A DNA stretch of 32,000 nt from Pectobacterium aquaticum. GTDB lineage: Bacteria > Pseudomonadota > Gammaproteobacteria > Enterobacterales > Enterobacteriaceae. This document shows positions 1,585 through 31,938 of the stretch, piece after piece. The stretch covers positions 372,519 through 404,518 of the forward strand of contig NZ_CP086253.1 of the NCBI RefSeq assembly GCF_003382565.3, given 5' to 3'. The notes beneath the pieces are model-generated. The model saw only the letters and a list, made by a program, of their open reading frames with translations, was not told the origin of the DNA and did not search any database. The position numbers were made by a program, and so were the translations under genes. How positions within the stretch are numbered: the stretch's first letter is position 1; each line of letters begins with the position of its first letter.

Positions 1585-2508
1585 CTAGGGGCGTGCGTGC
1601 AACTGCTGAGCGTGGGGGAGTGCGGTCATTGCGCCTTTTGCCGTGGTAGCCAGTGCACCGCACCGCTGCGCCTGCTCGATAATGGGATCCCAGCTAAGTG
1701 GCTGCGACAGGTCATCATACTGCGCCAGACCGTGCAGCAAACCGGCGACGAAAGCATCGCCCGCGCCAGTGGTATCGACGGGCGTTACCGACGGCGCGGC
1801 AAAGTGTTGTAGCCGATGGCGATCGTGCAGCCAGACACCTTCGCCGCCCAGCGTCACTAGCAAGAGTTGGGTGGGGTAGCGCTGCATAAACTGCTGAATT
1901 CCCGCTTCAACATCCGGTGTCGAGCAGAGAAAGGCCAGTTCTTCACGCGATAGCTTCACCACGTCGGCCAGCATCAGCGCCTGTGCCAGACAGTCGCGCA
2001 GTTCCTGCTCGCTTTGCCAGAGGTCGTCACGAATATTCGGGTCGAAGCTGATCCATCCCTGTGCGGCTTTCACCTGCTGCATCGCCGCAAATGCGGTGCT
2101 GCGCGAGGGCTCCTGCGAGAGTGCAATCGAGCAGAGGTGCAGCCATTCTCTCTGGCTGAACACCGGCAGGTCTTCCGGTTGTAAAAACAGATCGGCACTC
2201 GGGCGCACCATAAACGTGAAGGTGCGTTCCCCTGTTTCATCGAGGCTCACGACCACGGTTGAAGTTCGATGGAACCTGTCGTGTGCCATGTAGCGGGTAT
2301 CAACGCTTTCCCGTTCCAGCACCGTTTTTAGAAAATGGCCAAAAACATCGTCACCGACGCGACCAACAAAGGCGCTGTTTCCCCCCAGTCTGGCAATGCC
2401 GACCGCCACATTGGCGGGTGCACCGCCTGGGCATTTCAGATAGCGTTCCGTATCTTCCGGGATGAGATCGACAACCGCGTCGCCCATGACCCAAACTCTG
2501 TTTGCCAT
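1585..2508 (-). CDS. scrK: Fructokinase (ribokinase/PfkB family), ScrK/CscK type
   Basis: 307-aa ORF. The N-terminus VWVMGDAVVDLIPE...CPGGAPANVAVGIARLGG and C-terminal DTTGAGDAFVAGLL...GALATTAKGAMTALP match enterobacterial ScrK nearly colinearly. It is adjacent to scrY. Confidence 0.93.
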   Translation of the reverse strand: MANRVWVMGDAVVDLIPEDTERYLKCPGGAPANVAVGIARLGGNSAFVGRVGDDVFGHFLKTVLERESVDTRYMAHDRFHRTSTVVVSLDETGERTFTFMVRPSADLFLQPEDLPVFSQREWLHLCSIALSQEPSRSTAFAAMQQVKAAQGWISFDPNIRDDLWQSEQELRDCLAQALMLADVVKLSREELAFLCSTPDVEAGIQQFMQRYPTQLLLVTLGGEGVWLHDRHRLQHFAAPSVTPVDTTGAGDAFVAGLLHGLAQYDDLSQPLSWDPIIEQAQRCGALATTAKGAMTALPHAQQLHARP

Positions 2509-2551
2509 AACGTTACTCTTATCAAGGATAATTAGACTGTTTGCTAAAATA

Positions 2552-2567
2552 GAAGAATCGGTTTAGC
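2552..2567. promoter_or_regulatory. Candidate LacI-family (ScrR-type) operator upstream of scrK
   Basis: Sequence gaagaatcggtttagc. The right half GGTTTAGC is a perfect half-site of the palindrome GCTAAACCGGTTTAGC shared with 1448-1463. It lies about 45 nt upstream of the scrK start. Confidence 0.4.
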
Positions 2568-2834
2568 TAAGCAATATCATTATGAGAATGTCTACAGGAT
2601 AAAATAGCAGGGAGGAAATAAACTGGGGAAGAGATTGTGAGTTACAGGAATATTTTAAGTGTATGGGTAATCATGTTTTTTTGACATAAAGGCGTAGAAA
2701 AAGGAAAGTGAACGCGATCGAGTTTTCGAACACGTGGGCTAAATAAAATACCTTTTTGCCCGATACTCTTTATGTCATTTGGCGGTACTGCGCGGCTGTC
2801 ATAAGAAGGAAGATACCAAGAAGGAGAGAATGGC

Positions 2835-3023
2835 ATGGCTCATAAAATCTTGGATAACATGTTGGATGAATTAAAAACGGTAGTGAAACAGCACGTCGGT
2901 GAGAGTGCTGATGTTCAGATTGACATACGCTATCTGGAAGGTGGACGTAAAGCGCTTCGTATTACCATTCCTGATATTTCCACCCTGGAAATTGAATTTA
3001 ATCGGCGTTCCGATCGTGCGTAG
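2835..3023 (+). CDS. Small hypothetical protein (62 aa)
   Basis: ORF with a good SD (AAGGAG at 2821-2826, 8 nt before the ATG) and a balanced, protein-like composition. Its stop overlaps a GTG start candidate of the downstream bactofilin gene (GTGCGTAG). I recognise no homology. Confidence 0.4.
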   Translation: MAHKILDNMLDELKTVVKQHVGESADVQIDIRYLEGGRKALRITIPDISTLEIEFNRRSDRA

Positions 3024-3744
3024 TTACAACCTGCTTTGGGGAATATGGGCGATATGGGCTTTATTGGTTATCGCTTGGCTTATTGATATTTATAGCGAAT
3101 TTCCCCTTCACTATTACGGTCAGGGAGTGGCCGTTGTACTCGCCACAAGTGCCACGATCGCATTTTTCTATACTGTTAAAAGGAATAACACGATGTTTTC
3201 ATTCGATAAAAACAAAAAAGACGCCAAAGAATCGCAAGAGCGCAGTGAAATAAACAGCTCTCCCGCTATCAGCCCATCGAACGAGTTGATTAATTCAGTG
3301 AACCCTGTGCGCGTGAAAAAAGACACCTTCATTTCTCAGGGCGCGCGTATGACGGGCTCTCTGGCCGTGGATGGCAACATTACCGTAGAAGGCCGAGTAG
3401 AAGGTGATGTGCAGTGTGATAACACGATTAAAGTGGAGCACACCGGTCAGGTCAACGGCGAAATGAAATCGCAGCAGATCGTCATCAACGGTCGTGTTGA
3501 AGGACGCATAGCCGCAAGCGTCGTCGCCATTCTGGCACAGGGAACAGTCTTCGGCGATATTTTCACCGATGAACTCTCTATCGAAAAAGGCGGCGTCTTC
3601 ACCGGCCAATCCCACCCGCTTACCCCGCCAGCGCAGAATCAGGAAAAACTGACCTACGTGGAAAAGAAAAAAGAGAAATCCAGCAAAGCACCCGCAGAGC
3701 AAGAGAACGTCGTCGCGCTAGCGAGCAATGCGCCAACGGCGTGA
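3016..3744 (+). CDS. Bactofilin (polymer-forming cytoskeletal protein, DUF583) with two N-terminal hydrophobic helices; alternative internal start at 3193
   Basis: The C-terminal part is a bactofilin beta-helix repeat: ISQGARMTGSLAVDGNITVEGRVEGDVQCDNTIKVEHTGQVNGEMKSQQIVINGRVEGRI...GTVFGDIFTDELSIEKGGVFTG. Upstream in frame are two TM-like segments (LLWGIWAIWALLVIAWLI and GVAVVLATSATIAFFY). The ORF track starts at 2899, but that stretch overlaps the 62-aa ORF. GTG 3016 gives 242 aa; ATG 3193 (SD aaaggaa) gives 183 aa. This resembles the long and short CcmA forms described in Proteus mirabilis. Confidence 0.62.
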   Translation: MRSYNLLWGIWAIWALLVIAWLIDIYSEFPLHYYGQGVAVVLATSATIAFFYTVKRNNTMFSFDKNKKDAKESQERSEINSSPAISPSNELINSVNPVRVKKDTFISQGARMTGSLAVDGNITVEGRVEGDVQCDNTIKVEHTGQVNGEMKSQQIVINGRVEGRIAASVVAILAQGTVFGDIFTDELSIEKGGVFTGQSHPLTPPAQNQEKLTYVEKKKEKSSKAPAEQENVVALASNAPTA

Positions 3745-3780: not shown

Positions 3781-6498
3781 ATGGACAAGGAAGACATCAT
3801 CGGCCGGCGCTATTTCCAGTATTGGGGAAAAGCAAAAAGATCGACAGATGCGCTGGAGGGGGATGATTATCATCTGCTGCCTTATCACGGTTTGGATGTG
3901 GCAGCCTGTGGCTATTTCCTATTAAAGGGAAACTATTTTCAGGCTAACCATGTGCTGCGTGAACTGGCAGCGGGCGATGATGATGTCGCTGCATGGTTTG
4001 CGTATTTTTTGGCCTGGCACGATATCGGAAAATTTGCCCGTGGTTTTCAGGGCAAATATGCCAACCCTGATTCCCCGTTAGTCCAGTATTCGGGGCAGTC
4101 AGGGAGAGACAGGCATGACGATCTGGGCTTCTGGCTATGGACGATGCGTGATGACATTCCCACTTTATTTCCTTTAGGGACGAAAAAGCCCACTTCGGTG
4201 GTGAAAAATACGCTGGAGATCTGGCTGAACATTGTTACCGGGCACCACGGCAAACCGGCGGCGGAATGCAAAGGCAGTTTGGCTTTTCATCGTGATGACT
4301 ATCTGGCGGTAGAGCATTACCTGCATGATCTGGAAACGTGTTTTCCCGATGCGTCTACGCTCCCTGCCTGTTTCGCTGATAAAGGCTGGCGAAACCGGCT
4401 GAAGCAGCAAAGTTGGGCGCTGGCTGGCTTGACGGTGCTGGCAGATTGGCTGGGCTCGCGCCAGCAGGATTTCTGCTATTGCAGTACGCCGATGCCACTC
4501 GAAACCTATTGGCGTGAACACGCGCTGCCGACGGCAGAAAGGGTCATCTCGCGTTTGCCACGATCCCCGTCTCCTGCCCCTTTTCATTCTATCCCACAGC
4601 TCTTTCCGTTTATCCAGCGGCCAACGCCGCTGCAACAGCACGCGTTGGAGGCTGATATCTCCGCTGACGGGCCGCAGCTTTTCATTCTGGAAGACGTGAC
4701 TGGCGCGGGGAAAACGGAAGCGGCAATGATACTGGCGCATCGGCTGATGGCGCAGCAAAAAGCGAGCGGTATTTATGTCGGCCTGCCGACAATGGCGACG
4801 GCGAATGCCATGTATCTGCGGCTTGCCAAGGCCTACCGTGCATTATATTCACCAGAGCACAACCCTTCTCTGATGCTGGCGCACGGGGCGCGGCATATGT
4901 CATCAGCGTTTATGCAATCGCTGTGGGAAGGTGACAGTCAGGGGCAGGCGCAGTATGACAAGGAAGAAAATGCCGCCAGCAAAGACTGCAACATCTGGTT
5001 TGCGGACTCGCGCAAGAAAGCGCTGCTGGCGGATATCGGCGTGGGTACGCTCGATCAGGCGTTGATGGCAGTGATGCCGTTTCGCCACCAGTCGCTACGG
5101 GTGTTGGGGCTCCAGAACAAGTTGCTGATTCTGGATGAAGTACATGCGTATGATGCCTACATGAGCAAGCTGATCGAGCTGTTGATTGGCTTCCATGCGC
5201 AGCAGGGTGGTAGCGTGATTATCCTCACCGCGACGTTGCCGCTTAATCTGCGGGAAAAGCTGACGTGGGCGTTTTCGCAGGGGATCGCGTGTGAGGCTGT
5301 GCAGCCTGACCCCGACGCGGCTTATCCGTGGTTGACGCAGCTAACGCGTGAGGGACTACGGGAAACGCTGTTGGATACGCGGGCGGAAGTGAGACGCGAG
5401 GTCAAGATTGGCTGGTTGACGGAACGGTTGCAGGGCATTGAACGCGTGAAGGCTGCCGTGGCGGCAGGGCAATCGATCTGTTGGATCAGGAATACGGTGG
5501 ATGACGCCATCGCCGTGTATCGCCAGCTCATTGAAGCGGGGATTGCAGAGGAAAATACGTTGCTGTTCCACAGCCGCTTTGCCTTTTGCGATCGTATGGC
5601 GATTGAGGAACAGGCGCTGACGTGGTTTGGCAAAGACAGCACGCCGGAACAACGTGCTGGCAAGGTGCTGATTGCCACGCAGGTTGTCGAGCAGTCGCTG
5701 GATATTGATGTTGATAACATGATTAGCGATCTTGCGCCGATCGATCTGCTGATTCAGCGTGCAGGGAGGCTACAGCGGCATATCCGGTTGCCCGACGGGC
5801 GTCGTAAAACTGAAATGGACACTGCACCGCTGAAGGATGAGCGCCCGGCGGCGGTGCTGCACATTATGGCACCGGTCTGGCAGCCGGAAGCAGGAGCCGA
5901 CTGGCTGGGTGATGAACTGCGCAACAGCGGCTACGTTTACTCCGATCATGCTGCACTGTGGCGCACGCAGGCGATATTACGCGAACACGGTGCGATAAAA
6001 ATGCCGGAAGCGGCGCGGCTGCTGATCAACAGCGTGTATGAAGAACAGATCGCGGTGCCTCCGGCTCTGGAAGCGATAGCCTGCACGGTTTTGGGGAAAA
6101 ACTACGGTCAGCGTTCTTTCGCACTACAGTCTGCGCTGGCGTTGGTACACGGTTACTGTGCTCAATCCAGCGAAGCAGGCTGGAGCGATGCGGTGGATAT
6201 CTCCACCCGTATGGGAGAGGAAACGCTGGATCTGTATCTGGCATGGAAAGCGGAAAATGACGGTGAACTTCCACAGCCTTACGCCACATCGGACACCTTC
6301 GCCTGGGAGCAAAGCCGCGTGCAGGTGCGCTTAAGTTGGTGGCAGAAATGTAAAACTGGATTACCAATATTGGAAGGTGACGCATTGGAGCGGTTTCGGC
6401 AGCAATTACACCGTCCACAGGCCGAAGTGCTGCTGCTGAATCGGGGTGAAACCCACGCGTTTTATAGCGAGCGAGTGGGGTTGATGCTCAGTCAATAA
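3781..6498 (+). CDS. cas3: Type I-E Cas3 nuclease/helicase (HD domain + SF2 helicase)
   Basis: 905 aa. HD motifs: HLLPYHGLDVAA, WHDIGKF, VTGHHGKP. Helicase motif I LEDVTGAGKTEAA, motif II LILDEVHAYD, ILTATLP, VATQVVEQSLDID, QRAGRLQRH. It is colinear with E. coli YgcB/Cas3. Confidence 0.97.
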   Translation: MDKEDIIGRRYFQYWGKAKRSTDALEGDDYHLLPYHGLDVAACGYFLLKGNYFQANHVLRELAAGDDDVAAWFAYFLAWHDIGKFARGFQGKYANPDSPLVQYSGQSGRDRHDDLGFWLWTMRDDIPTLFPLGTKKPTSVVKNTLEIWLNIVTGHHGKPAAECKGSLAFHRDDYLAVEHYLHDLETCFPDASTLPACFADKGWRNRLKQQSWALAGLTVLADWLGSRQQDFCYCSTPMPLETYWREHALPTAERVISRLPRSPSPAPFHSIPQLFPFIQRPTPLQQHALEADISADGPQLFILEDVTGAGKTEAAMILAHRLMAQQKASGIYVGLPTMATANAMYLRLAKAYRALYSPEHNPSLMLAHGARHMSSAFMQSLWEGDSQGQAQYDKEENAASKDCNIWFADSRKKALLADIGVGTLDQALMAVMPFRHQSLRVLGLQNKLLILDEVHAYDAYMSKLIELLIGFHAQQGGSVIILTATLPLNLREKLTWAFSQGIACEAVQPDPDAAYPWLTQLTREGLRETLLDTRAEVRREVKIGWLTERLQGIERVKAAVAAGQSICWIRNTVDDAIAVYRQLIEAGIAEENTLLFHSRFAFCDRMAIEEQALTWFGKDSTPEQRAGKVLIATQVVEQSLDIDVDNMISDLAPIDLLIQRAGRLQRHIRLPDGRRKTEMDTAPLKDERPAAVLHIMAPVWQPEAGADWLGDELRNSGYVYSDHAALWRTQAILREHGAIKMPEAARLLINSVYEEQIAVPPALEAIACTVLGKNYGQRSFALQSALALVHGYCAQSSEAGWSDAVDISTRMGEETLDLYLAWKAENDGELPQPYATSDTFAWEQSRVQVRLSWWQKCKTGLPILEGDALERFRQQLHRPQAEVLLLNRGETHAFYSERVGLMLSQ

Positions 6499-6961
6499 AT
6501 GTCTCAACAGGCACATTAAAGTAGCGAGAAAAATCCTTAACTTGCTGTAATGTCATGGTTCGCTTACCGTTAATAATGTCAGAGATGACGCTTTGCGTTG
6601 CAATTTGCTTTAAATCTGACTGTTTCAGCCCTCTTTCTTCAATAAAAAAAGCTAAGGCTTCAGCCTGACTGACGTGGGGCACATCTCGGTGTTTCTTTTC
6701 ATATTCATAGACTCTGTGCGCGATGAGCTCTGCAAAAGTGGCTGGAATATCATTGACATCAGAAGAATAGAGGTAAAGTTGATTGATGCACTCCATTCTT
6801 TCCTGAAGATCATTATCGTCTTCAATAGGTTCCATACAGGCAGAGAGTAAAACAGACAAGCTGTTAAGCTGCTCAGAGGCTTCCTGAAGCAGAAGCGGTA
6901 AATTTTCGATGAGCTCACTGATTCCTACAGAATGGTTAGAACCCAGAGATGTATTTCGCAT
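6488..6961 (-). CDS. HigA-like XRE-family HTH antitoxin (157 aa); its toxin partner is decayed
   Basis: The C-terminal HTH LKQSDLKQIATQSVISDIINGKRTMTLQQVKDFSRYFNVPVETFID parallels HigA at 17665-18081 (LTQSDFEAEIGKKSLVSRILNGERTLTLDHMRALAKRFDIPVSAFVD) and E. coli HigA. SD AAGGTGA is present. The 3' end overlaps the cas3 stop by 11 nt, convergently. Confidence 0.8.
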   Translation of the reverse strand: MRNTSLGSNHSVGISELIENLPLLLQEASEQLNSLSVLLSACMEPIEDDNDLQERMECINQLYLYSSDVNDIPATFAELIAHRVYEYEKKHRDVPHVSQAEALAFFIEERGLKQSDLKQIATQSVISDIINGKRTMTLQQVKDFSRYFNVPVETFID

Positions 6962-6964
6962 AAT

Positions 6965-7146
6965 TCACCTTTTTGTCTTCGTTTGAGCTTTCCACCACTT
7001 ATCGTACTCGGCGTGAGAGCACACGTCTTTTACATACAAAGAACCTGTATTTTTGCTAATTACATAACGATTGATGAGCGAACCTGACAAACGTTAAGCG
7101 ATTGTGTGACGCCCCGGCGTGACGCTTTGAAGTCATTCGGATTCTC
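6965..7146 (-). pseudogene. higB: higB (RelE-superfamily mRNA interferase) relic: 5'-truncated, frameshifted, with an internal stop
   Basis: My translation of the minus strand. One frame reads (stop)RLSGSLINRYVISKNTGSLYVKDVCSHAEYDKWWKAQTKTKR(stop), ending 3 nt before the higA-like ATG. Compare intact HigB in this window (GKIFIKHITSHAEYDRLTEYYRRNKE) and E. coli HigB (CYIREVMTHKEYD). A second frame further upstream reads ENPNDFKAS...SLNV, which resembles TPDDMKKRF...VIDI. There is no start codon, and the N-terminal third is missing where the NTase gene ends at 7165. Confidence 0.7.
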
Positions 7147-7164
7147 ACGTCCGGTATAGCAAGA

Positions 7165-7923
7165 TTAAACGAGACCGAAGCCTATTTTTATGCGGTAAAT
7201 GACATCACTAATAGAGCCACGTATACCCAAATTTCTTAAATTAACGTTTTCGTTGGGTAGAGCAGCTAAAAATATCTCCATGTGGATTCGAATGTCATCG
7301 GGTATTTCTATTGCGTTTTCAGTTAGTTGACCAGAAAGTCGAATGACATCGTTGCGATGTTTATTTATGGTTTTGGTATCGATGGTTTCACCTGCTTTTT
7401 TACGATTTGAAAGATCGAGCCAAGCATGCATTTTGAAGGGAATTAGTCGGTCTGCACCGATGTACGATAAGCGTTCAGTTTGTTGAAGACCATTCTTCAG
7501 AAAAGCGTAGTAATTGTCGTCGAGCAGAATAGCCGAAAGGCTAGAAATATCCTCTCCCGTTGGTATGGGAATGATAGATGCATCTTTAGGTGGAGTTATA
7601 CCTTCTGGTGAACGTGAAAAAATCTCTATTTGTACTGGATAAGTGCTGTCTTCAGGGTTCTTAAAACGATAGAAGATTGATTTTTCGCCACCGCTTTGGC
7701 GATGTTCATAGCCTCCTGCTTTGATGAACTCCCAGAATTTATTCAAAAACTCAGGGGTCAAGGTTTCAATGATCAAAACGATGTCTAAATCTTTAGTCGA
7801 TCGGAATGGCTCCCCGACCTCATCGAGAGTAATCCAGGAGGCTACTCCGCCGATCAACACATATTGATCTTGATAATCCTTGAAATATTCACCAAAAAGG
7901 CCTAGTCCGCGAATTTCATCCAT
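7165..7923 (-). CDS. Nucleotidyltransferase-fold protein, AbiEii/DUF1814-like putative toxin (252 aa)
   Basis: NTase signature: YVLIGGVAS (G25-G26), FRSTKDLDIVL (D45xD47), a later acidic strand VQIEIF, and a C-terminal helical region FKMHAWLDLSNRKK...KHRNDVIRL. It overlaps the upstream gene by 22 nt in operon fashion. The region is AT-rich compared with the cas genes. Confidence 0.75.
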   Translation of the reverse strand: MDEIRGLGLFGEYFKDYQDQYVLIGGVASWITLDEVGEPFRSTKDLDIVLIIETLTPEFLNKFWEFIKAGGYEHRQSGGEKSIFYRFKNPEDSTYPVQIEIFSRSPEGITPPKDASIIPIPTGEDISSLSAILLDDNYYAFLKNGLQQTERLSYIGADRLIPFKMHAWLDLSNRKKAGETIDTKTINKHRNDVIRLSGQLTENAIEIPDDIRIHMEIFLAALPNENVNLRNLGIRGSISDVIYRIKIGFGLV

Positions 7924-8933
7924 GGGTAATTTTCCTTAATTTCATCGAGCGATAGTTGAATTCTTTCATCAGGATTATCCTTAAAAGCCAGATAAAGGGA
8001 TACTTCATCAACGACATTAGTTGAAGATTTAGGGCTACGATAGCGCCAGATCTCGATAGTGGCTTTTGCACTGTCAATATCCGTCACCTCTTTAAACTGG
8101 CCGCTCTCCAAAAATGTTGTGTAGATTTTCTGCGTCATCGCGAATACAGGGTGTCGGCCTGATGAAAGTAGGGTGTATTTCGCCAGAGCAGTATCACCGC
8201 TATAACATACGTCTTTACCTAATTTTGGGATTTTGTTCACCATAACCGTTTTCTTAACAGGGCTACGCATCATCGGCAGGGCTTTTTTAAAGGTATCTTT
8301 TTGCGAATGGGTAAAAGTATAACGTTTGGTTGTAAATGCCTCTTCAGTATCAGGAATGAGTATATCTGCGTTGATTAGTTCTGTAGTGACTTTGGAAAGC
8401 GTTACCCTGCTGTACTTATAAGGTGCCATGAGTTCATAAGCGTTGTAGGCTAAACCAGATTGGTTCCATCCGTCATAAAGTAACCGGATTAGTATGGCTT
8501 GGGTTGCGGGAGAAAATTCAGTGCCCCTTTCCTTATTCTGTTTCCTCATTCTGAATGCTTCGCGCAAATCCATAGCTAATTCAGGAATAAAGAATTGCCG
8601 GTCAATGGAGATGAAGTTAATTTGTTGTTCAATAAGGCTTTTCCGTTCTACAAAGGAGAGCGTATTAGTAACGTAAACGACAACCCTTTCCGTTTTTTTC
8701 TCGATAACAGCGAGGCGTTTTTTTAGGGCAACAATACCTGGGTATTCTCCATCGTGCTGGATGATGGCCAACAGAGGTATGAGTGCACCGTTTGGCAGGT
8801 AGATGTCTAATTCGAAGAACTGGAAAGCATCCTGGATGCTGAATGGGACATTGAGCTTTGTTTTAGCAGCCTTAATTTTAAATCCTAATGCAGATTGAAT
8901 ATAGTTTTTTAACCCGGTTATTTTCATTGTCAT
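7902..8933 (-). CDS. wHTH protein, AbiEi/COG5340-like putative antitoxin/regulator with an extra unassigned N-terminal domain (343 aa)
   Basis: SD GGAGAG lies 5 nt before the ATG. Residues ~141-192 look like a winged HTH (SPATQAILIRLLYDGW...YSRVTLSKVTTELINADILI). The C-terminal part (CYSGDTALAKYTLL...VVDEVSLYLAFKDNPDERIQLSLDEI) resembles AbiEi-type C-domains. Residues 1-135 carry no motif I can assign. The family assignment is from memory of these families, not from a search. Confidence 0.65.
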   Translation of the reverse strand: MTMKITGLKNYIQSALGFKIKAAKTKLNVPFSIQDAFQFFELDIYLPNGALIPLLAIIQHDGEYPGIVALKKRLAVIEKKTERVVVYVTNTLSFVERKSLIEQQINFISIDRQFFIPELAMDLREAFRMRKQNKERGTEFSPATQAILIRLLYDGWNQSGLAYNAYELMAPYKYSRVTLSKVTTELINADILIPDTEEAFTTKRYTFTHSQKDTFKKALPMMRSPVKKTVMVNKIPKLGKDVCYSGDTALAKYTLLSSGRHPVFAMTQKIYTTFLESGQFKEVTDIDSAKATIEIWRYRSPKSSTNVVDEVSLYLAFKDNPDERIQLSLDEIKENYPWMKFAD

Positions 8934-8944
8934 TTTTGCTCTCC

Positions 8945-9007
8945 GTGTAAACTTACTTTTTGTAATGTATATCAGGTAACTTTCAACGGCAAAAAATTAC
9001 TTTACAC
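8945..9007. promoter_or_regulatory. Imperfect inverted repeat bracketing a candidate promoter of the wHTH/NTase operon (possible autoregulatory operator)
   Basis: Arms are GTGTAAACTTACTTTTT (8945-8961) and AAAAAATTACTTTACAC (8991-9007), matching 14/17 as an inverted repeat. Between them on the minus strand are TTGCCG, a 17-nt spacer, and TACATT, a plausible -35/-10 pair. AbiEi-type antitoxins are known to autoregulate through inverted repeats. Confidence 0.35.
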
Positions 9008-9190
9008 GAAAAGATATCACAGGTGTTTTGTCTGTTATTGCTGCTTTGGCAAAGGAAAGATATAAAGGGGGTTTTGCAAGTGCCGCCACACCCCGCCTGC
9101 ACTATCCTAGTGCTGAGCCACAAACGTGAGCCATCTCTCTGGCGTCGCGGGCTGAATGCGTTAAAAAAGAGACTGTAGAACCAGCCGTAA

Positions 9191-11429
<2,239 letters not shown>

Positions 11430-17356: not shown

Positions 17357-17668
17357 ATGCATGTTATTTCGCGGGCACCTTTCGACACTGCAACCACTCA
17401 GTTTCCGAATCAGGCGGCAGTACTTGATGACCTATATCGGGTTATCAAACGCGAAATGTATGCAACGCCGGACGATATGAAAAAACGCTTCCCCAGTCTG
17501 GATAGGATGAAATACCGGGAAAAATGGTGGGTTATTGATATTGGTGGCGGGCATCTTCGAGTGATGTTTTTTGCTGATTTTGAGCGAGGGAAAATCTTCA
17601 TCAAGCACATCACATCCCATGCAGAGTACGACAGGCTGACAGAGTATTACCGGAGGAATAAAGAATGA
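17357..17668 (+). CDS. higB: HigB toxin (RelE-superfamily mRNA interferase)
   Basis: 103 aa. MHVISRAPFD...RFPSLDRMKY...WVIDIGGGHLRVMFFADFERGKIFIKHITSHAEYD is colinear with E. coli HigB (MHLITQKALKD...FPSLDNFKY...NVGGNELRVVAMVFF...YIREVMTHKEYD). It overlaps higA by 4 nt (ATGA). Confidence 0.9.
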   Translation: MHVISRAPFDTATTQFPNQAAVLDDLYRVIKREMYATPDDMKKRFPSLDRMKYREKWWVIDIGGGHLRVMFFADFERGKIFIKHITSHAEYDRLTEYYRRNKE

Positions 17669-18081
17669 TGTACGCAGACGCCATCAAGGCAGCTAACAAC
17701 CTGACGAGTATCGTACCATTCCTTGGAGGCAGCACCTCTCGTAAGGATTATGAGGATGCGCTGAAACTAACCGAATACCTGATCGAGAGTGAACCTGACA
17801 GTCCGCTAATCGATATGCTGACTGCCAAAATTGACAAATACGAAGATGATGCACCGGAGTTTGCAGCCTTCAACGAACGTGTTAAAGCACTCCCAGCCGG
17901 TATCGCTTTACTGCGCGTCCTTATGGATCAGCATCAGCTAACGCAGAGTGATTTTGAAGCTGAGATTGGTAAAAAGTCTCTGGTATCCCGCATTCTAAAT
18001 GGTGAGCGCACTCTAACGCTTGATCACATGAGAGCGCTTGCTAAACGATTCGATATTCCTGTGAGTGCTTTTGTTGATTGA
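17665..18081 (+). CDS. higA: HigA antitoxin (XRE-family HTH)
   Basis: 138 aa, the same length as E. coli HigA and colinear with it: ...APEFAAFNERVKALPAGIALLRVLMDQHQLTQSDFEAEIGKKSLVSRILNGERTLTLDHMRALAKRFDIPVSAFVD. Confidence 0.92.
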   Translation: MMYADAIKAANNLTSIVPFLGGSTSRKDYEDALKLTEYLIESEPDSPLIDMLTAKIDKYEDDAPEFAAFNERVKALPAGIALLRVLMDQHQLTQSDFEAEIGKKSLVSRILNGERTLTLDHMRALAKRFDIPVSAFVD

Positions 18082-31583: not shown

Positions 31584-31592
31584 TCCTCAGGT

Positions 31593-31613
31593 CTCACCTC
31601 TCACCTCTCACCT
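31593..31613. repeat. 3 x 7-nt tandem repeat (CTCACCT)
   Basis: CTCACCTCTCACCTCTCACCT lies directly after the M48 peptidase stop. Confidence 0.85.
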
Positions 31614-31938
31614 CGATCTAACCCTACCTTATGCCGATCGTGTGTGGTTTCACAGTACACGATCCCTTTCCTGTTAGATGCTTGAACAAAAAAAACACGA
31701 TTTGCTGTTTTTATAAACGAGAATGTCGAACGAAAAGCATGAACTACGTAGCCAGTCGATTAACAAAAATGCGTTAAATATCATCCTATTAAAAACTATC
31801 TGTAGAATCTCTCGCGATAAATAAAAAAATCAGAGAATAATATCTTTTTATTATTAGCTTGCTTATGTTTATTGGGATTTTTCCTAATAGGCATTAAAAT
31901 CGCTGCTTCACGACTTCATGATTACCGACGAGTTATTT

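Follow-up and report, generated by a model that had tools for sequence, protein, structure and literature searches.

The window considered in the current work, i.e. the whole stretch of 32,000 nucleotides (nt) that was analysed from Pectobacterium aquaticum (assembly GCF_003382565.3, contig NZ_CP086253.1, positions 372,519 to 404,518 of the forward strand), carries between cas3 and cse1 of a type I-E CRISPR-Cas locus two minus-strand genes, specifying a nucleotidyltransferase (NTase) of 252 amino acids (aa) and a 343-aa partner protein, which probably constitute a self-contained bicistronic toxin-antitoxin (TA) or abortive-infection (Abi) module of the AbiE/MenAT kind. AbiE is a type IV TA/abortive-infection system, recently reclassified as type VII. 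The 252-aa protein is supported at superfamily level as a divergent branch of the AbiEii/MenT (DUF1814) NTases, itself lying below current model thresholds, and is the predicted toxin by analogy with these relatives; the partner is probably the cognate antitoxin and an autorepressor. A role of the pair in phage defence is proposed with lower confidence than its identity as a TA module. The genes and borders concerned are located in the window as follows.

7165-7923, minus strand: NTase gene, 252 aa, from the open reading frame (ORF) listing, with the ribosome-binding site (RBS)-like sequence AAGGAAA before its ATG
7902-8933, minus strand: partner gene, 343 aa, from the ORF listing, with the RBS-like sequence GGAGAG before its ATG
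~7149-9112: acquired two-gene cassette, delimited by alignment with the corresponding locus of P. carotovorum DSM 30168
3781-6498, plus strand: cas3, left flank of a block of low guanine-plus-cytosine (GC) content
9230-10798, plus strand: cse1, right flank, followed by cse2-cas7-cas5-cas6e-cas1-cas2 and the type I-E CRISPR array

The two ORFs overlap by 22 nt (7902-7923), the stop end of the partner gene running into the start of the NTase gene, and their coordinates between cas3 and the Cascade operon are exactly those given in a first-pass annotation of this DNA. Both are regarded as genes and not as chance ORFs because hundreds to thousands of database relatives exist: 4,113 were recovered for the NTase, with a 99% match in P. 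versatile, and the partner has a 99% match in P. aquaticum. At all loci that could be inspected upstream of the NTase, the partner gene is its immediate upstream neighbour, in the same orientation and either overlapping or abutting it; this includes 24 of the 24 IMG/VR contigs for which the region was available. The suggestion that the NTase has varied partners, raised by the small number of partner relatives recovered (60-64 from a word-indexed protein search, profile included), was rejected, since direct locus checks always revealed the partner.

The same gene order was encountered on chromosomes of Rahnella, Kosakonia and P. veronii, on Pseudomonas megaplasmids of 200-375 kb and on plasmids of Sulfurospirillum, Latilactobacillus, Edwardsiella and Methylocella, the plasmid-borne pairs spanning four phyla and the NTase branch at least six. 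The pair is thus one conserved module, with the regulator-first, enzyme-second order of AbiE/MenAT operons, and it behaves as a mobile two-gene islet whose settings comprise conjugative plasmids, megaplasmids, viral contigs and solo islets in housekeeping regions (beside ssb-uvrA in Rahnella and Kosakonia, and beside guaA in P. veronii). On the Pseudomonas megaplasmids (loci L008-L013), the pair adjoins a conserved block with a 670-aa RNB (RNase II-like) protein, a PAPS-reductase-like protein and many unannotated small genes.

Residue conservation in the NTase was determined from an alignment of 123 diverse family representatives, from which the following motifs emerge.

G25-G26: motif I, hGG of the Pol-beta signature
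R41-S-T43-K-D45-L-D47 (nt 7783-7803): motif II, DxD together with the threonine at the phosphoacceptor position
E100: third carboxylate
K164-M-H-A167-W168: motif III, with K164, A167 and W168 conserved
K188-H-R-N-D192: motif IV-like, in which K, H and D do not vary

Invariant columns are G25, G26, T43, D45, D47, Y72, R86, P96, E100, L129, K164, A167, K188, H189 and D192, with R41 nearly invariant, and all residues quoted in the first-pass annotation (GG, D45xD47, an acidic strand and a K-H-R-N-D tail) are present and conserved among the 123 representatives. Judged by sequence comparison, this invariant set is the Pol-beta nucleotidyltransferase signature (hGG...DxD plus third carboxylate), extended by two C-terminal motifs of AbiEii/DUF1814 (PMC3985639). 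The family itself is large, with 3,073 clusters (50% identity) fitting its profile at E <= 1e-3 and 658 at E <= 1e-30. When the 123 relatives were scanned singly, 62 matched the Pfam model AbiEii/DUF1814 (PF08843) at E <= 0.1 (best 4.1e-9), and each of these 62 fits the family profile of the window NTase at E < 1e-62; DUF6036 was matched by seven of the 123, no further family recurs and no antibiotic-NTase family was among the matches. A Sulfurospirillum plasmid homologue, 38% identical, bears the PGAP name 'AbiEii/AbiGii toxin family'.

A search of PDB sequences with the 123-sequence profile returned no significant match, the weak best two being 5uvd (NTase-like) and 8an4 (MenT1, E 0.18). In the hidden Markov model (HMM) alignment to the latter, with the same E of 0.18, T43/D45/D47 fall on T39/D41/D43 and K164 falls on K137 of MenT1, the residue roles of which have been described (PMC11375011). 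The AlphaFold2 (AF2) model of the NTase (predicted local distance difference test, pLDDT, 80) yielded weak Foldseek matches to Pol beta, JHP933 (4o8s/4ok0), TglT (6j7p) and a viral poly(A) polymerase, and no kanamycin or lincosamide NTase structures occur among its top 50 fold matches. The only near full-length matches were JHP933 of H. pylori (4O8S/4OK0) and TglT/MenT3 (6J7P), in which an NTase domain is followed by a helical C-terminal domain, although the template-modelling (TM) score is 0.29-0.41, E is 2e-3 to 1e-2 and identity is 12-13%. The proposal that the 252-aa protein is an AbiEii/DUF1814-like NTase consequently holds at superfamily level, on the basis of motif conservation, the PF08843 matches of 62 of the 123 relatives and the weak fold matches to JHP933, TglT and Pol beta.

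The AF2 model of the partner (pLDDT 87, predicted TM score, pTM, 0.59) is composed of three domains.

aa 1-135 (nt 8529-8933): N-terminal domain, alpha/beta
aa ~141-207 (nt 8313-8513): central winged helix, MarR-like
aa ~210-343 (nt 7905-8306): C-terminal domain, mixed

Relatives were found for the central part only, these being MarR-, ArsR- and GntR-type regulators according to sequence profile, fold and Pfam scans of family members; the Pfam scan of 30 partner-family members returned generic winged helix-turn-helix (wHTH) models only (GntR, HTH_24, MarR, HTH_36), and the partner-family profile retrieved nothing significant from PDB sequences, with weak MarR-type matches only. The wHTH core noted in the first pass was therefore recovered, at about residues 141-207, and the remark that the first ~135 residues fit no family was borne out: OtDUB, PopP2 and CodY, the top Foldseek PDB matches of the N-terminal domain, were rejected at TM <= 0.2 and low probability.

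The promoter region of the partner contains a predicted operator.

8939-9013: inverted repeat in the partner promoter region, with 24-nt arms (8939-8962 and 8990-9013) that are 79% complementary and 27 nt apart
8944-8951 and 9001-9008: inverted-repeat core, CGTGTAAA and TTTACACG, respectively

The proximal arm overlaps the partner RBS. Within the window, the pattern GTGTAAA-N49-TTTACAC is found a single time, and 100 shuffles gave no instance of it. TGTAAA..TTTACA is kept at -75..-12 in Rahnella, Kosakonia and a Pseudomonas megaplasmid; in lineages farther removed, the corresponding location upstream of the partner holds inverted repeats of another sequence. An autoregulatory operator in co-evolution with its repressor would be expected to behave in this way, binding by the partner being predicted from these sequence patterns. 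A promoter consensus scan gave sites no more numerous than in shuffled sequence. The spacing of the repeat resembles that of the AbiE operator, where inverted repeats in the promoter have 11-bp arms separated by N27 (PMC3985639).

Comparison with characterised systems places the pair closest to AbiE and MenAT in several respects. AbiE (AbiEi-AbiEii of L. lactis and S. agalactiae) is likewise bicistronic, with a winged-helix regulator first and a DUF1814 Pol-beta NTase of ~250-290 aa second, and shares with the window pair promoter inverted repeats, occurrence on mobile elements and corresponding NTase motifs (hGG, R-S-T-x-D-x-D, the lysine of motif III and K...D in motif IV). In particular, R41-S-T43-K-D45-L-D47 equates to R63-S64-T65-x-D67-x-D69 of AbiEii (PMC3985639; bioRxiv 10.64898/2026.01.19.700257), of which T65 is an auto-phosphorylation site (bioRxiv 10.64898/2026.01.19.700257). 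The window NTase differs from AbiEii in missing the Pfam AbiEii model, in a GG-to-DxD spacing of 18 instead of 15 residues and in its motif IV, and AbiEi, at ~196 aa, has two domains with an N-terminal wHTH, whereas the partner has 343 aa in three domains with a central wHTH and no AbiEi Pfam match. MenT1 of M. tuberculosis (COG4849; PDB 8AN4) is among the two best PDB sequence matches and shares the GG...T-x-D-x-D core and the motif III lysine; this match is not significant alone, and the MenT1 antitoxin is a 68-aa peptide. Motif III of the window NTase (K-x-x-A-aromatic) resembles the KLxAaxxR of COG4849, but it has no Arg at +7, R174 standing at +10.

A predicted DUF1814-COG4861 class (e.g. 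Rv0836c-Rv0837c) has a wHTH antitoxin 'much larger than the toxin' (PMC3985639, PMC7450476, PMC3968373). In MenA2-MenT2 (Rv0837c-Rv0836c; COG4861), compared here by description, the upstream wHTH partner exceeds the toxin, as it does in the window (343 versus 252 aa), and the architecture of the partner may, again by description, be that of this already predicted, uncharacterised class. The first-pass view of a TA-like pair with a non-canonical antitoxin is retained for its NTase side, at superfamily level, whereas the antitoxin architecture may not be a new one. JGI names the relatives 'hypothetical protein', without a COG-derived name, which argues weakly against a match to COG4849 or COG4861.

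By analogy with these systems, the 252-aa enzyme would bind a nucleoside triphosphate and Mg2+ via GG, D45xD47 and E100, and would add nucleotides to tRNA 3' ends, thereby blocking aminoacylation and growth. The 343-aa partner would neutralise it, probably via its C-terminal domain; neutralisation may consist of induced auto-phosphorylation of the invariant T43, comparable to that of T39 in MenT1, S78 in MenT3 and T65 in AbiEii. The winged helix of the partner would bind the TGTAAA/TTTACA repeats over its own promoter and so autoregulate the operon. In Pectobacterium, the module settled in the gap between cas3 and cse1, a place where TA modules have been captured repeatedly.

A number of results weigh against this interpretation. 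In direct HMM scans, the window NTase has no match at E <= 1 in Pfam, NCBIfam or PADLOC and none in PHROGs, and the profile search advised in the first-pass annotation consequently leads to AbiEii/DUF1814 through 62 of the 123 relatives and not through the window protein itself. Its motif IV reads K-H-x-x-D, with His in place of an Asp of +DxxD, and its fold matches are weak (E about 2e-3, TM 0.3-0.4). The partner similarly gave no direct match in Pfam, NCBIfam, PADLOC (E <= 1) or PHROGs, so that neither protein of the pair matches a PADLOC-DB v2 defence model at E <= 1. None of the 30 partner-family members matches an AbiEi Pfam model (AbiEi_1, _2, _3 or _4) at E <= 0.1 and the 50 best fold matches of the partner include no AbiEi, for which reasons the 'AbiEi/COG5340-like C-terminal part' previously ascribed to this protein is not supported. 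The neutralising role of the partner would follow only from gene order and from analogy with the AbiEi C-terminal domain. As regards phenotype, AbiE of S. agalactiae was not protective against 32 coliphages (bioRxiv 2026), and MenT2, the sole studied toxin with a large COG4861-type partner, was non-toxic in published assays (PMC7450476). Finally, no recognisable defence islands surround the pair in the chromosomes examined.

The last two observations are also arguments for an alternative, considered unlikely, in which the NTase is not a toxin at all but a regulated enzyme (a small-molecule/antibiotic nucleotidyltransferase or a signalling enzyme), the partner being a ligand-sensing transcription factor with its N-terminal domain as sensor. 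The partner does possess an extra conserved N-terminal domain beside its MarR-like wHTH, and MarR-type regulators are often ligand-controlled; yet the motif set of the NTase, including the R-S-T-x-D-x-D phosphoacceptor context, is specific to AbiEii/MenT toxins, and half of the relatives match the AbiEii model, with no antibiotic-NTase family among the matches and no kanamycin or lincosamide NTase structure in the top 50 fold matches. Moreover, solo two-gene islets on plasmids and phage-like contigs, regulator-first translational coupling and landing in a TA hotspot are typical of TA modules, and a TA module therefore remains the preferred reading of the pair.

The genomic position of the pair was examined by comparison of the cas3-cse1 gap across species reference genomes (78 cse1 loci). 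In P. carotovorum DSM 30168, the otherwise collinear locus has 256 unrelated bp in place of the cassette. Because of this absence, the cassette is regarded as a horizontally acquired insert, as had been surmised from its composition, with junctions at ~7149 and 9112. Neither a target-site duplication nor a recombinase/mobility gene was seen at these junctions when looked for. The proteins of the pair are 99% identical among P. versatile, P. brasiliense and P. aquaticum, compared to 93-96% for cas3, cse1 and higA, a difference which suggests that the cassette was recently exchanged between Pectobacterium species. GC content is 0.40-0.42 over 6501-9000 (~41% for the block overall) versus 0.54-0.60 in the cas genes, in agreement with the low-GC cassette initially reported; the block is, however, larger than reported, as it begins at the cas3 stop (6489) and contains, besides the pair, a higA-like gene and a higB remnant that had been overlooked. 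The contents of the gap in other loci are as follows.

Without genes: Serratia (40 bp), Samsonia (156 bp), Dickeya (286 bp) and P. polonicum (577 bp)
With HicA/HicB: P. versatile CFBP6051
With HigB/HigA: P. carotovorum DSM 30168
With MazF/MazE: P. colocasium and three Brenneria species
With both HigB/HigA and the NTase/partner pair: P. brasiliense CFBP8736, and also a second strain of P. versatile

The borders of this hotspot are fixed at the cas3 stop and at about 117 bp upstream of cse1, and the gap is a general landing site for TA modules in Pectobacterium and Brenneria. A published survey located type II TA genes in Pectobacterium type I-E loci either in the cas3-cse1 gap or else downstream of cas2 (PMC6963963). 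The modules of that survey (HicAB, HigB, RelE/ParE, PemK) occupy the identical genomic niche but are type II, whereas the NTase pair represents another toxin class and would there have been scored as hypothetical proteins or as 'transcriptional regulator'. The pair is found beside cas genes only in Pectobacterium (the window, P. versatile locus L001, and L017), one of the 78 cse1 loci (L017) carrying it, and its surroundings in Rahnella, Kosakonia, Pseudomonas, plasmids and viral contigs are free of cas genes. The survey of related type I-E loci called for in the first pass thus resolved presence, absence and junctions of the insert and revealed no repeated association with cas genes in unrelated lineages. 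Considering that outside Pectobacterium the pair is never beside cas genes, its link to CRISPR-Cas is positional, and the physical wiring into the operon that had been put forward is not supported, the gap being a TA landing site; stabilisation of the cas locus, if any, would be a generic TA by-product.

Functional coupling of the pair to CRISPR-Cas was weighed nonetheless, either as a CreTA-like addiction module, which would make loss of the cas locus costly, or through co-regulation of the divergent Cascade operon by the wHTH protein, and is judged improbable. The partner gene and cse1 are indeed divergent, with start codons 296 bp apart, and the cassette is better conserved across three Pectobacterium species than the neighbouring cas3, cse1 and higA; the presence of at least four TA families in the cas3-cse1 gap of Pectobacterium and Brenneria (PMC6963963) further implies that something may favour such modules there. 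However, apart from the lack of cas neighbours in other genera, the conserved cse1 upstream sequence starts at 9113, outside the cassette, the inverted repeat is at least 220 bp from the cse1 start, and the loci of Samsonia, P. polonicum, Dickeya and Serratia look working with an empty gap. A self-contained TA module that has settled in this gap is thus preferred over a CRISPR-coupled one.

Within the same low-GC block, the following neighbouring genes were recognised.

6488-6961, minus strand: HigA-like helix-turn-helix (HTH) antitoxin gene, 157 aa, HTH_3 6e-6, with its 3' end overlapping the cas3 stop by 11 nt
6965-7090, minus strand: higB remnant, 41 aa, HigB_toxin 0.005 (below cut-off), with homology in the C-terminal ~31 residues only

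The higA/higB genes are a neighbouring module, separate from the NTase/partner pair. A deletion of ~400 bp with its junction at ~7044-7051 has removed the 5' two-thirds of higB together with its promoter, leaving higA orphan but intact, whereas an intact 120-aa HigB is paired with HigA in sister loci L001, L016 and L017. The similarity of the HigA-like protein extends beyond the HTH_3 domain, its residues 45-156 matching the first 118 of 402 positions of PADLOC PD-Lambda-2_B (E 1.3e-14). A further HigB/HigA pair (103 and 138 aa, respectively), this one intact, is present at 17357-18081, just downstream of the CRISPR array, and the type I-E locus is for this reason bracketed by TA modules. That the NTase and its partner are decaying passengers without current function, like the adjacent higB whose ~400-bp loss demonstrates that the region tolerates decay, is very improbable, as neither ORF is shortened and no invariant family residue has been lost, and as synonymous changes per site outnumber non-synonymous ones between the window and P. 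versatile L001 (pN/pS 0.38 and 0.17), values of little power that rest on only 7-8 substitutions each.

Further features of the window concern the remainder of the locus and its surroundings. The type I-E CRISPR array (15215-~16980) consists of the repeat GTGTTCCCCGCGCCAGCGGGGATAAACCG with a 61-nt period and, by its length, on the order of 29 repeats. Immediately upstream of cas3 lies a bactofilin-domain gene (2899-3744, 281 aa), the P. versatile L001 equivalent of which is called as 202 aa, and a low-GC stretch (GC 0.39 at 2501-3000) precedes this gene within 2501-3744. At 31591-31938 on the minus strand, there is a full-length match (269 bits) to the Rev13 antisense RNA of soft-rot Enterobacteriaceae (Rfam RF02737), which accords with an origin from Pectobacterium.

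A link to bacteriophages is provided by the C-terminal domain of the partner. Among viral proteins, the best structural match (Foldseek E 3.4e-6, probability 1.0, TM 0.61) to the partner comes from Dickeya jumbo phage JA29 and is a hypothetical protein of 148 aa, identified as JA29_261 (vB_DsoM_JA29, MH460461:211270-211716). This protein likewise ranks first of 959 JA29 ORFs in a comparison with the partner HMM, where it aligns to the C-terminal domain. Alignment by hhalign of a 49-sequence partner profile with JA29_261 (74% probability, E 2.8e-5) covers partner residues 221-336, and the conserved partner residues P225, G246, W296 and R324 are matched in the phage protein. Homologues of JA29_261 are restricted to four near-identical Dickeya jumbo phages, JA11, JA13, JA29 and JA33. 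The gene is situated two genes from that of a putative RNA 2'-phosphotransferase, JA29_263. Since the C-terminal domain of AbiEi suffices for neutralisation (PMC3985639), JA29_261 could, if the C-terminal domain of the partner acts alike, be an antitoxin mimic directed against a phage-defence module.

A more far-reaching proposal is that the pair founds an uncatalogued, widespread branch of AbiE/MenAT with a three-domain antitoxin (sensor-like N-terminal domain, wHTH and neutralising C-terminal domain), which would act as a genuine anti-phage Abi system in soft-rot Enterobacterales and be countered by the JA29_261 mimic; this is put forward as a tentative and rather doubtful possibility.

With respect to its wider meaning, AbiE/MenT toxins are an active topic for tRNA 3'-end modification, antitoxin-induced auto-phosphorylation and tuberculosis persistence, and the NTase branch described here is missed by the models of Pfam, NCBIfam, PADLOC and PHROGs, so that in thousands of genomes and plasmids its members carry the label 'hypothetical protein'. 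As the cas3-cse1 gap of Pectobacterium is a TA landing pad, additional evidence is needed before a module located there is interpreted as a CRISPR accessory. The branch offers an uncharacterised antitoxin architecture together with a clear predicted operator, its invariant threonine at the phosphoacceptor position makes the auto-phosphorylation model testable in a new lineage, and the stand-alone C-terminal domain encoded by the Dickeya phages is a concrete lead for an anti-TA countermeasure.

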